Source: Escherichia coli
Lineage (GTDB): Bacteria > Pseudomonadota > Gammaproteobacteria > Enterobacterales > Enterobacteriaceae
DNA: 64,000 nucleotides
Strand: one strand, 5' to 3'
Assembly (NCBI RefSeq): GCF_024223415.1
Contig: NZ_CP100500.1
Part shown: positions 10,170 to 56,492 of the stretch, in pieces
Layout of the letters: every line of letters starts with the position of its first letter
How positions within the stretch are numbered: position 1 is the stretch's first letter
Position numbers and translations under genes: made by a program
The notes under the pieces: generated by a model
The model's input: the letters and a program-made list of their open reading frames with translations, nothing else
What the model was told of the DNA's origin: nothing
Database searches by the model: none

Positions 10170-10171
10170 GA

Positions 10172-11137
10172 TTATACCTCCATTTTCTTCATTGTTTTCG
10201 AGGTTCTGTATTCCGGAATAGTGGTAACAATTGCACCGACCAGTGCAAACAGTGTTCCGATGATCGTGACCAGATAAACGCTATTGCCCAGCGATGGAAT
10301 TAATACGTCAATCAATACTGATCCCAGTAACTGGCCCGCCGTTGAAGCAACCCCCAGCATCAGTAACCCCAGACCTCTGACCAAAATGGCCATTAAACCG
10401 ATAGACATTAGTCCAAGCGGGCCGCCAAGATACATCCACCAGACATCTGGTAATTGAACAGTGACGTGCCCTAATGCGACACGAATAGCAAGCGCTGTGC
10501 CTAAAACACAAAATCCAACGATGAAATTCTAGGTGATTGAAACCAGCATGGATCCCGTAGCTTCAGCTACTTTTGCATTTCCAGCGGGCTGCCATCCTGC
10601 AAGCAAACCAGCTAAGAACGGAAGAATGGCAAGTAAGATGAAAGAGGTAGAATGCCACTGAGGTGACACAACAAAAATCGTAGCAATAACCGCAAATAAT
10701 GCACCGATGATGCAATAAGGGGTAAAGTATTTTTTCTCGTCGACACCGATACCAAAGCGATCGCAAAGTAAACCAGACAGCAATAGCGCGGAGATCAGTG
10801 CGGTTTGAAACGTTGCGACCCCGAGTGCGCTGGCTGATGCGCCTTCAGAAAATACCACCATCGCTCCACAGAGACCGGCAAACCAGTTCCAGAGAGGAAC
10901 TTTTCGGTTTTTAATCAGAGAAGGAATTGCCGCAAATTGTTGCCGGGTTTCTTTTCGCGCCATAATAATAAAAAACATCACGACTAAACCACTGGCAAAG
11001 GAGATAACTGCGCATGCATTACCATCCTGTAACCAGTGACCTAATTGACCATTCACCGCTGATTGCATAGGGGAGAGCATACCCGCAAGAATCGTGGCAA
11101 GCATCCATAAGGGAGTTGAGTACTTATTCTTTTTCAT
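10172..11137 (-). pseudogene. DMT-superfamily (DUF606/YdcZ-like) membrane transporter interrupted by an in-frame amber codon at 10529-10531
   Basis: ORFs 10529..11137 and 10172..10435 are in the same frame; the sequence between them encodes hydrophobic helix-like residues; the single TAG (plus-strand cta) separates them. Confidence 0.7.
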
Positions 11138-11965: not shown

Positions 11966-13180
11966 TTAATGCGTAAAAATAGTTTGCTGATAATGTATAC
12001 TCTGAATTCGATGTATCACAGATTCATGTTCAGGCATGTCGGAAGCATTGCTTGTCTCCACCGCTAGGGATGCAAAGGCGCTGGCATAACACAGTGCTGA
12101 TTCCAGTGATTTTCCTTTCGCAAGTCCTGATGCCAGAGAGCCGTTAAACGCATCCCCGGCTCCTGCCGTATTTTTAACGACCGCTGGAAACGCTGGCGAA
12201 TGAATGAATTTTTTGCCATCAAATGCGAGCGAGCCCTTGCTACCGAGCGTGATAACCGTGTTTTTTACCCCTTTATTGTGGATAGCTTCTGCAGCTCGTT
12301 TAGCTGATTCAAGATCGTGTACGTCTATGCCGGACAGTAAACCAGCTTCTGTTTCATTGGGGGTGATATAATCAACATCCTGAATAAGTTCGTTGACGAT
12401 ATCATTATAGGGTGCCGGGTTAATAATGACCGGGATACTGTTTTTTTGCGCCAATGTGATCGCTTGTTGCAGAGCGGTATAATTTGTTTCGAGCTGCAGA
12501 AGTATGACATCAGAATTAATAATCGCTTCTTTCTGAATAGTTATTTCATCGGACGACATTGTCATGTTGGCACCGGGATAGATCGCAATAACATTATCGC
12601 CAGTACCTTCATTAACAAGGATCGTGGCAGTTCCGGTTTGCGTTTCTTTCGTTTGATAAATTATACTTTTATAAATCTTAGACGAATTCATAAAGTTGAT
12701 CGCATAATCACTAAAGTGATCTGTACCTACTTTTGTTATGAAATAAACATCAGTATCGGCAAAGCTTGCTGCCAGCGCCTGGTTACAGCCTTTTCCCCCC
12801 GGTGAAAATATAAAATTACTTGCCAGAAGCGATTCTCCGATAGTGGGAAGCCTCGGCAAATAACTGATGATATCAACATTAAACGAACCAATAACGCATA
12901 CTTGACTTTTCATAGTTGAGTGGCCTTTTTTTATTCCCTGGGCTGTATCATAATTTTCAAGCGCATAAGCGATTTCATTTTTCGCAATAGTATCAAGCGA
13001 GTCTAGGACGATAAAAGCACCGCCATGACATCGAGTCAGATAGCCAAGCCTGGCAAGTTCATTAAGATCTGAACGAATAGTTTCTTTCGTTACATTGAGG
13101 CTATTGGACAGATCGGATACTTTTACAGAACCGAATTTACTGAGTCGTTTCAATATTTCATGATGGCGTTCAAATTTCAT
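11966..13180 (-). CDS. fusion protein: N-terminal DeoR-type HTH plus PfkB/ribokinase-family carbohydrate kinase
   Basis: N-terminus HHEILKRLSKFGSVKVSDLSNSLNVTKETIRSDLNELARLGYL (DeoR HTH); kinase motifs GGKGCNQA and NTAGAGDAFNGSLASGL. Confidence 0.7.
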   Translation of the reverse strand: MKFERHHEILKRLSKFGSVKVSDLSNSLNVTKETIRSDLNELARLGYLTRCHGGAFIVLDSLDTIAKNEIAYALENYDTAQGIKKGHSTMKSQVCVIGSFNVDIISYLPRLPTIGESLLASNFIFSPGGKGCNQALAASFADTDVYFITKVGTDHFSDYAINFMNSSKIYKSIIYQTKETQTGTATILVNEGTGDNVIAIYPGANMTMSSDEITIQKEAIINSDVILLQLETNYTALQQAITLAQKNSIPVIINPAPYNDIVNELIQDVDYITPNETEAGLLSGIDVHDLESAKRAAEAIHNKGVKNTVITLGSKGSLAFDGKKFIHSPAFPAVVKNTAGAGDAFNGSLASGLAKGKSLESALCYASAFASLAVETSNASDMPEHESVIHRIQSIHYQQTIFTH

Positions 13181-13287
13181 GCTTCACCTCACTTCAGTTA
13201 CGTTAATATCTATCGATGTATATTGATGTGATAATCACCATAAAGTGGCGGGGAAAAGCAAAAAAAAGCAAAAATAGCCTGAGAAAA

Positions 13288-13850
13288 GGTAAGCGTTAAT
13301 GGAGAATCATATTGATGCTTATTTATTGGTGAGAACTACGTTCCATGGCAGGAGTTCATCAATACGGTTGGAAGGTTATTCCGGCAGTACGCTCAGGATA
13401 TGGCGCAGATACGCTTCCGGATCAATGTCGTTCAGAAGGCAAGTGCCGATAAGCCCATACAACAGTGCACTGCGCTCGCCGCCGAAGAACATAAAGTTTT
13501 TATTTCCGAGACAGATGGCACAAAGGGCTTTTTCCGCGGCATTATGTCTGCCTCCGCCTGACCGTCAACACTGTAATAACAGAGTGCGCCCCACTGATTC
13601 AGTACACAGCTGAACCATTCTCCCAGTCTGGATTTTTGGATAGCGTGGCATTTTTCTCCACCATGCATGCAGTGAGTCCAGTAACAGTTTGCTCTTCTTC
13701 TGCCTGACCACAAGATGTGCTGGACTGGTAAACGATGGGGATACCTGCTTACGCGAGAGCAATAAGTGGCTGGCCACAATTCTCGGTACAAAACTCTGCT
13801 GAATAGCAGCGATTTTCCCAGCGTGGTGCGTCGTTTTCATTTTACTGGTT
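13288..13850 (-). mobile_element. IS66-family remnant: terminal repeat (GTAAGCG at 13288) plus frameshifted 3' part of a transposase gene
   Basis: Minus-strand translation near 13327-13380 gives PSNRIDELLPWNVVLTNK*, resembling the IS66 transposase C-terminus; upstream frames are broken. Confidence 0.6.
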
Positions 13851-15230
13851 CTAAGTTAACAATTATCTGTTCACTAATGACTACTCTAAAAACTTGTATC
13901 AGGACTATCACTTATTTAAGTGATATTGGTTGTCTGGAGATTCAGGGGGCCAGTCTATAAACTTTTTACAAAAGGATGAATGCAGAAGGTTACTCTAATG
14001 GCCAGAGTGATGACAATGATGGTCAGACGTTGACCTGCAGAAACTGCATTTTAATTGGTCTATAAAGTCTGCAAGAGGAATCAGGGTCAGATCAGTGAGT
14101 CTTATCGCGGCCCGAAGCTATGACTGAAAGAAGGCTGGATACAGAATTGCAACAATTTGGCAATGTCAGAACACAGAAGCTTTGCAAGCAGGTGAAAGGT
14201 TATGTCTAGCAAAAGGAGTATATCAGAATACATCTACTGATGTACAAAACACAACAATAGCTTCATGATATATAAATACGTGATGACGAGTGGTACTCCG
14301 CATGGTTATTTAACTTCTCAGCACCACTAATGATCCTGAGCAACTTCGTATTTGGGCCATTGCCATGGAGTAGAAAGCTGTGTCTGAGAATGCAGAATTT
14401 GAGAAAAGAATTCGCTTTCTTGGAGAGCTTCTGAAAATGGCACGCTAACAACGTTTTGTTAAAAAATGTGAATCACTTGCCGGGGCTGCATTTTCTATTC
14501 GAGGAGAATGTTGACGTAGATATTACAGAAATCTCAGCGCATCAGGATAAACTGCTACCTTAGGTCAACCACCAAAAGAAAATACAATACGTCCAGTTTG
14601 TATGCCTTTAATAACACATCTTCTAAATGTTGAAGAATTATCCCGCCTGCTGAAGAACGTTGCTCTGAGTGTGATAAACCTTTTTATTCTTGATGATGTC
14701 AGCGAGAAGATGGAATATATCCCCGACTGGGTCGTGGTTACCCGGTTAAACATCTGGTGGCGCTAATAAATCTGGCAAGTCACATTCTGTTGAATGCTGT
14801 GACAGTGCCTTACCGAGAGAGCGAAATTGTGGTGTTCTAGTGCATAGTCGCCACCATTCCGGATAATTCTATTGCGTTGTTTTACAAGTTCTTTTACAGC
14901 GCAGATCTGTTGCTGACGTTGAATCAATAGCCTGGATTTCAGAACACAATGCCCGTTTGCTGGTTGGTCCGGCAGTAGCATTAATTCATTATCTGAATGA
15001 AATGTGTCAATCCACAGAAACCGCTGTCAATGACACATTTTGTCGGACGTTAACACGAGAAAGTCTGGCTATTCCGTAATGCCATCTTATTTCGTAATGG
15101 ATTGAGAATGCTGGATTTTTAATTATATTACGCGCAGTATTAATCGCGTAAATGTTTTGCGGTCAGCAACGGTGGGGGATCCATTGTTCTGTTCAATGAA
15201 TACCATCATACATTTGAATCAGGAGTCGGT

Positions 15231-15776
15231 ATGATGATTTTGGTGACGGGGGGCGCACGGAGCGGGAAGAGTCGCCACGCAGAGGCGCTTATTGGGGACT
15301 CTTCACAGGTTCTGTATATCGCTACCTCGCAAATCCTTGATGATGAGATGGCTGCACGGATAGAACATCATCGGCAAGGCCGCCCGGAGCACTGGCGCAC
15401 AGTGGAGCGCTGGCAACATCTTGATGAATTAATTCATGCAGACATTAACCCGAATGAGGTTGTGTTGCTGGAATGCGTTACCACAATGGTGACTAATCTG
15501 TTGTTTGATTATGGCGGCGATAAAGACCCTGATGAATGGGATTATCAGGCGATGGAACAGGCGATTAATGCTGAGATTCAGTCGTTGATTGCTGCCTGCC
15601 AACGTTGCCCCGCAAAGGTTGTATTAGTGACTAACGAAGTGGGAATGGGGATTGTGCCGGAGAGTCGTCTGGCACGACATTTTCGTGATATTGCCGGGCG
15701 GGTAAATCAGCAGTTGGCCGCTGCGGCAAATGAAGTATGGCTGGTGGTTTCGGGTATTGGAGTAAAAATCAAATGA
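15231..15776 (+). CDS. cobU: adenosylcobinamide kinase / adenosylcobinamide-phosphate guanylyltransferase
   Basis: 181 aa, [19 protein letters not shown]-loop; first gene of cobU-cobS-cobT. Confidence 0.95.
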
Positions 15777-16516
15777 GTAAATTATTTTGGGCGATGCTCT
15801 CATTTATTACGCGTCTGCCTGTACCGCGTCGCTGGTCCCAGGGACTGGATTTCGAGCATTATTCTCGCGGTATTATTACTTTTCCTTTAATTGGATTATT
15901 GCTTGGCGCGATTAGCGGGCTGGTCTTCATGGTGCTGCAGGCATGGTGTGGCGTACCACTGGCGGCACTGTTTAGCGTACTTGTGCTGGCGCTGATGACC
16001 GGGGGATTCCACCTGGACGGCCTCGCCGATACCTGTGATGGCGTATTTTCTGCACGTAGCCGCGATCGCATGTTGGAAATCATGCGTGATAGCCGTTTAG
16101 GCACCCATGGCGGTCTGGCATTGATTTTTGTTGTACTGGCAAAGATTCTGGTATTAAGCGAGTTGGCTCTGCGTGGCGAACCGATCCTTGCATCGCTGGC
16201 GGCAGCATGTGCGGTCAGCCGCGGGACTGCCGCATTATTGATGTATCGTCATCGTTATGCGCGGGAAGAAGGGCTTGGCAATGTGTTCATTGGCAAAATT
16301 GATGGGCGACAAACCTGCGTCACACTCGGCTTAGCCGCTATTTTTGCTGCCGTATTATTGCCGGGTATGCATGGTGTGGCTGCTATGGTGGTGACGATGG
16401 TGGCGATTTTCATCCTCGGTCAGCTTCTCAAACGTACGCTGGGCGGGCAAACCGGCGATACGCTGGGAGCTGCTATAGAGCTTGGTGAACTGGTCTTCCT
16501 GCTGGCACTGCTATAA
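15773..16516 (+). CDS. cobS: adenosylcobinamide-GDP ribazoletransferase (cobalamin synthase)
   Basis: 247-aa membrane protein; ATG overlaps the cobU TGA (ATGA). Confidence 0.95.
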
Positions 16517-18659: not shown

Positions 18660-18735
18660 TGGCTCCTCTGACTGGACTCGAACCAGTGACATACGGATTA
18701 ACAGTCCGCCGTTCTACCGACTGAACTACAGAGGA
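18660..18735 (-). tRNA. asnV: tRNA-Asn (GUU)
   Basis: Reverse complement matches the E. coli tRNA-Asn sequence including CCA. Confidence 0.95.
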
Positions 18736-21068: not shown

Positions 21069-21144
21069 TGGCTCCTCTGACTGGACTCGAACCAGTGACA
21101 TACGGATTAACAGTCCGCCGTTCTACCGACTGAACTACAGAGGA
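21069..21144 (-). tRNA. asnU: tRNA-Asn (GUU)
   Basis: Identical sequence to asnV. Confidence 0.95.
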
Positions 21145-22892: not shown

Positions 22893-22968
22893 TCCTCTGT
22901 AGTTCAGTCGGTAGAACGGCGGACTGTTAATCCGTATGTCACTGGTTCGAGTCCAGTCAGAGGAGCCA
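22893..22968 (+). tRNA. asnW: tRNA-Asn (GUU)
   Basis: TCCTCTGTAGTTCAGTCGGTAGAACGGCGGACTGTTAATCCGTATGTCACTGGTTCGAGTCCAGTCAGAGGAGCCA. Confidence 0.95.
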
Positions 22969-28971: not shown

Positions 28972-37638
<8,667 letters not shown>

Positions 37639-37875: not shown

Positions 37876-37951
37876 TGGCTCCTCTGACTGGACTCGAACC
37901 AGTGACATACGGATTAACAGTCCGCCGTTCTACCGACTGAACTACAGAGGA
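37876..37951 (-). tRNA. asnT: tRNA-Asn (GUU)
   Basis: Identical to asnV/asnU. Confidence 0.95.
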
Positions 37952-38942: not shown

Positions 38943-39032
38943 GGAGAGATGCCGGAGCGGCTGAACGGACCGGTCTCGAAAACCGGAGTAGGGGCAACTC
39001 TACCGGGGGTTCAAATCCCCCTCTCTCCGCCA
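38943..39032 (+). tRNA. serU: tRNA-Ser (CGA)
   Basis: GGAGAGATGCCGGAGCGGCTGAACGGACCGGTCTCGAAAACCGG...CTCTCCGCCA, long variable arm, anticodon CGA. Confidence 0.9.
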
Positions 39033-47671: not shown

Positions 47672-48235
47672 TATGTATTCCCTTGTGATTATAATCTTCA
47701 TGGATATATCAATAAGTGCCGTTATCCAAAAAAGCACATTTGGATACTATTCTATGAAGTTCATTTTATTTTAAGGGTTACATGTAACAAATGTATTTAA
47801 AAGATTTCAAAATGTTTCCAATCTATTTAATATAATTCAGAATTATGAATTCTAGATATAAGCATTCATGAGATTTATAAATATATATCAATATGTTATG
47901 AGTTAATCGGAAAGATAGGGAGTATCAATGAGTGTTGCGCTAAACGGCTGGTGTGATCACGCGCATATTAATGAAGGCATAAAAAAAAGCCGGCATCATG
48001 CCGGCCCAAAAAATATAAACAAGACGATAAAAGGCTAATAACGGGGTTATCATGACACAGAAATCAAAAAAGGTATAATTGAATTCGGTGCTAATATATT
48101 GTTTAGGTGAATTAATAAAACCATTACCATAGATAATAATAAATCTTTATTGCTGTTTTTCCGGTAATTATTGCCATTGCGCAAAAATTATCTATTTGTT
48201 CAAAAAATGATTGAGTCTTGACTGGCTCATCCAAT

Positions 48236-56405: not shown

Positions 56406-56492
56406 AACACATCAGATTTCCTGGTGTAACGAATTTTTTAAGTGCTTCTTGCTTAAGCAAGTTTCATCCCGACCCCCTCAGGGTCGGGATTT
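56406..56492 (+). ncRNA. dsrA: DsrA small regulatory RNA (activates rpoS, represses hns)
   Basis: AACACATCAGATTTCCTGGTGTAACGAATTTTTTAAGTGCTTCTTGCTTAAGCAAGTTTCATCCCGACCCCCTCAGGGTCGGGATTT matches DsrA as recalled, including its terminator. Confidence 0.9.

Follow-up and report, generated by a model that had tools for sequence, protein, structure and literature searches.

What is left of the DNA that lies between a genomic island and a metabolic operon, and does any of it still serve that operon? The question is raised by about 1.4 kb of Escherichia coli DNA upstream of cobU, positions 13851-15230 of the window (the whole stretch of 64,000 nucleotides that was analysed). The last island gene before the gap encodes a PfkB-type kinase and ends at 13180, and from 15231 rightward the gene order is cobU, cobS, cobT and ldtA. 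The original prediction, made from the letters and a list of open reading frames (ORFs), called the stretch gene-poor and degenerate, and this was confirmed. The longest ORF measures 72 aa (14763-14981, minus strand), the others are of at most 64 aa, and the ORF list holds none of at least 150 aa within 13181-15230. A six-frame Pfam scan of 13301-15300 gave no match inside the stretch, only an IS66 C-terminus on its left and the start of cobU, and an Rfam scan at E<=1 over 12500-16000 gave no match. Neither an intact small gene nor a structured RNA was found among the ORFs or by the Pfam and Rfam scans. The G+C content is 39-43% in the stretch, compared with 50-54% in cobUST.

The fragments that make up this DNA are too short or too decayed for profiles, and for this reason DNA and tblastn comparisons with intact elements were used; a set consisting of K-12, other E. 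coli, plasmids and intact IS elements resolved every block (Table 1). The stretch is very probably the fossilised boundary at which a genomic island meets the cobUST operon, composed of a pile of IS fragments, the tail of a cbiG relic (cbiG') and an intact promoter block. The boundaries between fragments are sharp and abutting, at 13957, 14187, ~14740 and ~14927, and the left limit of the stretch at 13851 is arbitrary, since it cuts through the IS2-like end. About 1.2 kb (13742-14927) would thus consist of four truncated IS fragments that interrupt one another, none of which should be able to transpose or encode a protein, and the functional part would be the final ~130 bp alone, with a sigma-70 promoter, a 95-nt leader and the cobU ribosome-binding site, a block that would drive cobUST and that belongs to the E. 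coli core. Of the earlier notion of decayed cargo, the decay stands and the cargo does not: the material is a stack of truncated IS2-, IS110-, IS66- and IS4-like elements together with cbiG'.

At least 80% of the stretch was found by megablast in 2824 of 5426 complete E. coli genomes, identical copies among them, and its blocks differ from one another in their distribution across E. coli genomes. Every piece has previously been labelled a pseudogene, either in RefSeq or in K-12, and the promoter is in the literature. The importance of the stretch is small beyond clean annotation, as it amounts to dead mobile DNA common to half of sequenced E. coli.

Alignment with the K-12 region upstream of cobU, which had been proposed as a check, placed window positions 13956-14840 and 14837-15800 at the cobU-proximal end of the cryptic prophage CP4-44 with 99.5-99.8% identity and located the pseudogenes yoeG and yeeH. 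The one interruption is IS5H, borne by K-12 at ~14837-14840 and missing from the window. To the left, K-12 continues into yoeH (a pseudogene) and yoeA, whereas the window passes, by way of an IS2-like end (tip at 13957) and an IS66 remnant, into another island, which holds genes for the PfkB kinase, an amidotransferase and a DMT transporter. The DMT-family transporter gene (window ~10170-11137) is labelled a pseudogene, with an internal stop, in two near-identical genomes (L001, L002) and is intact in strain Ec-U1 (L019).

Table 1. Features in and around the stretch, in window coordinates unless another record is named.
Feature	Position	Strand	Basis or remark
IS66-family TnpC C-terminal remnant, frameshifted	13346-13714	-	context left of the stretch
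IS2-like (IS3-family) left-end fragment	13742-13957	-	presumed IRL tip TAGACTGGCCCCCTGAATCTCC... ends at 13957
Putative IS110-family-like 3' non-coding end	13958-14187	+	transposase part missing
IS66-family tnpB 3' end and tnpB-tnpC spacer	14187-14301	+	DNA match to CP099096, weak tblastn
IS66-family tnpC, first 151 codons (leucine-zipper and zinc-finger region)	14302-14745	+	tblastn
54-aa ORF	14602-14766	+	open stretch of dead tnpC frame, not a gene
IS4-family transposase internal fragment, aa 166-228 of 445 (63 codons), one stop	14739-14927	+	tblastn
cbiG' 3' end, codons ~86-145	14924-15097	+	tblastn
Predicted sigma-70 promoter of cobUST: TTGAGA (15102-15107), 16-nt spacer, TATATT (15124-15129)	15102-15129	+	consensus, conservation, SELEX
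Predicted cobU leader, 95 nt	15136-15230	+	SD AGGAG at 15221-15225
cobU	15231-15776	+	ORF, Pfam CobU at N-terminus, RefSeq annotation of identical genomes
Open cbiG' copies in other records	L004 5735-6172; L011, L013, L014 8001-8435		
Rfam matches (tRNAs, rseX, DsrA)	18663-18735, 21072-21144, 22893-22965, 37879-37951, 38943-39029, 47982-48071, 56406-56492		

The promoter and leader of cobU

The cobU promoter had been expected to lie within this stretch, and it could be placed at 15102-15129. The pair of hexamers there is the best consensus match in 13700-15300 (10/12), a pattern that alone is not evidence, with three sigma-70-like sites observed in the region and 3.3 expected from shuffled sequence. 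In K-12, in-vitro genomic SELEX with RpoD holoenzyme assigned the same hexamers to the constitutive cobUST promoter (PMC3946193), and transcription is predicted to start near 15136.

It had also been suggested that the adjacent insertion remodelled this promoter, with a hybrid or an IS-borne outward promoter changing the proximal regulation of cobU. The IS fragments do approach to within 175 bp of the -35 element, and the riboswitch/PocR-controlled leader of other Escherichia is absent here, so that the total regulatory input has changed; an in-vitro RNA polymerase site upstream of yoeG (14241-14269) might in addition allow read-through. The remodelling itself is nevertheless improbable, as hexamers and leader show little or no change whatever lies upstream. 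The -35/-10 region is identical at 28 of 28 positions in E. coli that have either pocR-riboswitch-cbiG' or a tmaR-pduV remnant there, and it is unchanged in strains with IS5, ISEc8 or IS1. These three represent independent insertions, at 14840 (IS5, K-12), ~14966 (ISEc8, O157) and 15091 (IS1, strain Ec-U1), and all of them lie upstream of the -35 element, with the IS1 of strain Ec-U1 ending, at the equivalent of 15091, 11 bp before it.

The comparison also extends well beyond single strains. The 140-bp block upstream of cobU is contiguous with the gene in 5396 of 5426 complete E. coli genomes (query 15091-15300, identity at least 95%), and because this contiguity holds irrespective of the upstream DNA, the proximal promoter is, on the evidence of sequence comparison, ancestral and conserved rather than remodelled. 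IS elements have left it undisrupted in almost all of ~5400 genomes. Outside the species, the promoter is identical at 25 of 28 positions in E. marmotae and one further Escherichia species, and the cobU promoter of E. albertii has a 6-bp deletion. The spacer has JC distances of 0.12-0.17 across species, set against dS values of 0.27-0.56 in the neighbouring genes, and the promoter block in other Escherichia is two to three times less diverged than synonymous sites.

Lawrence and Roth are reported to have described, in 1995, several promoters for the K-12 cob operon and its induction by cobinamide, and the picture of a single promoter may be incomplete. A related idea is that the leader itself acts as a cis-regulatory RNA, for example in cobinamide induction, through a hairpin at 15164-15191 and a second one at the start codon. 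Both possible hairpins come from a consensus fold over Escherichia; the second joins 15204-15211 to 15229-15236, pairing CAUCAUAC with GUAUGAUG, and would cover the start codon. They are predicted in each of the Escherichia species compared, the 5' arm of the first hairpin has only changes that preserve pairing (G-U to A-U, C-G to U-G), and the leader is two to three times better conserved than synonymous sites, with a JC distance to E. marmotae of 0.12 as opposed to a dS of 0.39-0.56 for neighbouring genes between pdu-positive E. coli and E. marmotae. Such conservation is, however, equally explicable by a promoter, an SD sequence or a protein operator. Among ~10 distinct Escherichia sequences, only one of the 30 predicted pairs has a compensatory double change and the other changes are one-sided, of a kind that by our estimate would be compatible with pairing by chance ~16% of the time when they are transitions. 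Folded as a single sequence the leader is ordinary (z = -0.69), it has no Rfam match, and 95 nt is too short for a cobalamin aptamer. On balance, a cis-regulatory RNA that works through these hairpins is quite improbable.

When 100,044 species genomes were scanned for the leader motif, it was found in Escherichia only, apart from one 'Citrobacter' MAG contig that is identical to E. coli and is probably mis-binned. That an Escherichia-specific small regulatory RNA element arose in the leader after the deletion of the cbi genes in the genus ancestor is very improbable, and a regulatory RNA in the leader of whatever kind is unproven and unlikely. If it were real, it could explain how the reported cobinamide induction of E. 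coli cobUST operates without a riboswitch.

The cbiG' relic and the upstream control of cobUST

The DNA that lies beside the promoter on its left is 72% identical to aa 86-145 of an ORF of 145 aa that pdu-positive E. coli carry (tblastn E 2e-24). On the CbiG model NF004463 this ORF covers positions 1-126 (E 1.3e-20, 73.8 bits, cut-off 546), and it matches aa 1-112 of the Klebsiella/Salmonella CbiG with 44% identity. A full-length CbiG (cobalt-precorrin 5A hydrolase), with its ~350 aa and its N-terminal, middle and C-terminal domains, is not what the Escherichia relative of 144-145 aa represents, and the window keeps just the last ~60 codons of this cbiG'. These have lost 9 nt by deletion and run into a premature stop at 15080-15082, they gave no match to NCBIfam or Pfam when scanned alone, and positions 14936-15079 are annotated by RefSeq/PGAP in identical genomes as an incomplete pseudogene, 'cobalamin biosynthesis protein'. 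Divergence from the intact E. coli copy amounts to 13.5% in the tail and to 1.5% in the adjoining spacer, and the tail is dead. Even for cbiG' in general the constraint is weak at most, with a dN/dS of 0.30-0.41 against 0.02-0.24 for pocR, cobU and cobS.

The remnant could instead have been the 3' end of cbiP, which in Klebsiella directly precedes and overlaps cobU, in keeping with the cbiP-cobU order of Salmonella and Klebsiella, and the PGAP label is unspecific enough to allow it. This reading is scarcely credible in view of the CbiG matches just described and of the finding that, in tblastx and blastn comparisons with the complete Klebsiella operon, the whole pocR-cobU interval has matches in two places only, the riboswitch leader (at 84% identity) and cbiG at its 5' end, and none in cbiP. 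As a relic of cbiG and not of cbiP, the remnant documents the loss of cobalamin synthesis in the genus Escherichia.

The context from which the cbiG' tail derives is preserved in pdu-positive E. coli, E. albertii, E. marmotae and one further Escherichia species, in which the order is pdu-pduF-pocR-B12 riboswitch-cbiG'-cobUST. The cobalamin riboswitch (RF00174) upstream of cbiG' scores 105-109 bits in pdu-positive E. coli and E. marmotae; it is absent from the window at the gathering score, and also at E<=1 in 12500-16000. Compared with this ancestral layout, the window has the homologous cbiG' tail, spacer, promoter, leader and cobUST, and it lacks pdu, pocR, the riboswitch and the first ~85 codons of cbiG'. 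The cob operon of Klebsiella and Salmonella (cbiA-P and cobUST behind a cobalamin riboswitch) has cobU, cobS and cobT in common with the window, and its cbiG is homologous at the N-terminus to cbiG'; the window is without its cbi genes. In Klebsiella the overlap of cbiP and cobU leaves no spacer or promoter block, and the promoter-bearing spacer, of 133-151 nt, was found in Escherichia only.

From these comparisons we infer the following order of events. In the ancestor of the genus Escherichia, two deletions would have taken cbiA-F and the part from the rest of cbiG through cbiP, with cbiG' left over as the cbi genes were deleted and riboswitch-cbiG'-cobUST as the resulting arrangement. In the lineage of the window, IS-mediated insertions and deletions would then have taken pdu, pocR, the B12 riboswitch and the 5' part of cbiG'. 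The riboswitch/PocR control would presumably have been lost with them, cobUST would now rely on the proximal promoter alone, and the cobUST genes of most E. coli would be cut off from PocR and the riboswitch.

Several minor observations concern the relatives that keep this region. In pdu-positive E. coli, E. albertii, E. marmotae and one further Escherichia species, cbiG' (144-145 aa) is open at constant length between the riboswitch and cobU, and the intact form may be a riboswitch-gated leader ORF for cobUST and not pure junk. In E. albertii (L011 8436-9876), the interval from cbiG' to cobS has no called cobU gene and cobT is likewise absent; cobinamide salvage seems to be in decay in this species. 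The sRNA STnc230 (RF02075) is located between pduF and pocR in pdu-positive Escherichia (L004 4192-4275, L013 6461-6544). Within the window, a perfect 10-bp inverted repeat (15000-15009/15031-15040) was considered as a feature and rejected: one mismatch interrupts it in a strain that shares 97% identity with the window, and it is broken in pdu-positive E. coli and other Escherichia species.

IS fragments on the island side

Adjoining the cbiG' tail is an internal piece of an IS4-family transposase gene (tblastn 73% identity, E 3.3e-24), which has 78-80% DNA identity to plasmid IS4-family genes and is a PGAP pseudogene in identical genomes. Its match to the NCBIfam model transpos_IS4_1 (E 2.7e-5, 23.4 bits) is below the cut-off of 115, and a full IS4-family DDE transposase (~445 aa) with ends is not present at 14739-14927. 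The K-12 pseudogene yeeH, at 14841-14927, corresponds to the right part of this piece.

The IS66-like block to its left corresponds to the junction of tnpB and tnpC. Positions 14187-14724 are 71.5% identical in DNA to an intact IS66-family element on plasmid CP099096, across both genes. At the protein level the tnpB end is weak (TnpB aa 107-124 at 14206-14259, tblastn E 0.028), and the tnpC piece has 47% identity and a tblastn E of 3.5e-24. The latter has at least three in-frame stops and at least two frameshifts, with shifted-frame segments at 14462-14563 and 14634-14678; a CxxC zinc-finger motif is recognisable in TnpC aa 1-151, and the frameshift-corrected translation matches Pfam zf-IS66 weakly, below the cut-off (E 0.078). 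The N-terminal TnpC region and the tnpB-tnpC order are thus present and support a remnant of an IS66-family member, not a working one. The TnpC DDE catalytic domain is absent from 14187-14745, which covers TnpC aa 1-151 only. Compared with IS66-family elements such as ISEc8 and the CP099096 copy (tnpA-tnpB-tnpC), with which it shares the tnpB-tnpC junction and TnpC aa 1-151, the window retains ~560 bp of ~2.5 kb and has no DDE domain, tnpA or ends. Matching terminal repeats were not found in 13300-15300, and both ends of the fragment abut other IS fragments. In K-12, the pseudogene yoeG spans 14302-14834. A sequence TGTACA-17-CATGAT, whose position (14241-14269, at the tnpB-tnpC junction) was read off the window, could drive spurious transcription towards cobU; in PMC3946193 the same hexamers appear, under yoeG, as a site of RpoD holoenzyme in vitro.

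A '53-aa plus-strand fragment' at about 14591-14752 had been noticed earlier as reading like an internal piece of a larger protein, and that impression was correct. It is the 54-aa ORF of Table 1, the longest open piece of the dead tnpC frame, and by tblastn it aligns with residues ~103-151 of IS66-family TnpC. A functional small gene might be seen in it, as it is open, its DNA is 99% conserved across thousands of genomes and some RefSeq genomes list it as hypothetical protein WP_001128468.1. There is, however, hardly any chance of this: its frame is that of a decayed TnpC and lies within the yoeG pseudogene of K-12, inspection of the sequence found no Shine-Dalgarno sequence upstream, Pfam and NCBIfam gave no match, other RefSeq genomes omit it, PGAP leaving it out even in an identical genome, and its identity is not above that of the surrounding dead DNA.

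The next block is 73% identical in DNA to the 240 bp directly after an IS110-family transposase gene on the ETEC plasmid NZ_CP023347, and the collinear upstream DNA of K-12 (yoeH) matches aa 284-337, the C-terminus, of the same transposase (E 1e-6). It is because of this plasmid match and the yoeH match that the block is putatively assigned as an IS110-like 3' non-coding end, an assignment that joins unannotated DNA adjoining an IS110-family gene, at 73%, to a weak K-12 transposase match. Of an IS110 DEDD transposase gene itself, no coding part was found in the window, where the homology is confined to DNA that follows such a gene.

At the left edge lies the IS2-like fragment, whose intact TAGACTGGCCCCCTGAATCTCC... 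tip at 13957 we take to be the IS2 IRL. By blastn it has 83% identity to the end of K-12 IS2F and 88% to a second IS2-like relic in K-12, and it is 87-92% identical to plasmid IS2/IS3-family elements. The arrangement expected of IS2 in the IS3 family, a left terminal inverted repeat followed by orfA (InsC), is present as a fragment only, truncated after ~215 bp, with a decayed InsC-like N-terminus at 13745-13837 (InsC aa 13-52, tblastn E 0.006). Terminator-like sites at 14036-14048 and 13796-13809 occur at a frequency not above that of shuffled sequence. Beyond the IS2-like end, the IS66 remnant matches Pfam DDE_Tnp_IS66_C (E 1.7e-13) and DDE_Tnp_IS66 (E 0.006) and, by tblastn, aa 380-505 of an intact TnpC (E 2e-11); it is a PGAP pseudogene in identical genomes.

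Observations elsewhere in the window and in other records

Rfam identified in the window four tRNAs with identical scores, a fifth tRNA, rseX and DsrA. The tRNA at 18663-18735 matches the position of a tRNA-Asn downstream of ldtA in near-identical genomes, and the tRNA set fits the asn-tRNA island-integration region of E. coli. A 2888-aa ORF occupies 28972-37638 on the minus strand and may encode a YeeJ-type large adhesin, which is our guess from map position only. Finally, chromosomal DNA is borne by records of 0.4-5 Mb designated 'plasmid' (NZ_CP079635.1, CP125156.1, NZ_OL790696.1) and by a 'Citrobacter sp.' MAG contig (L022). Some of these records are 99.8-100% identical to the present E. 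coli locus, and such chromosome-bearing records are probably mislabelled or mis-binned.
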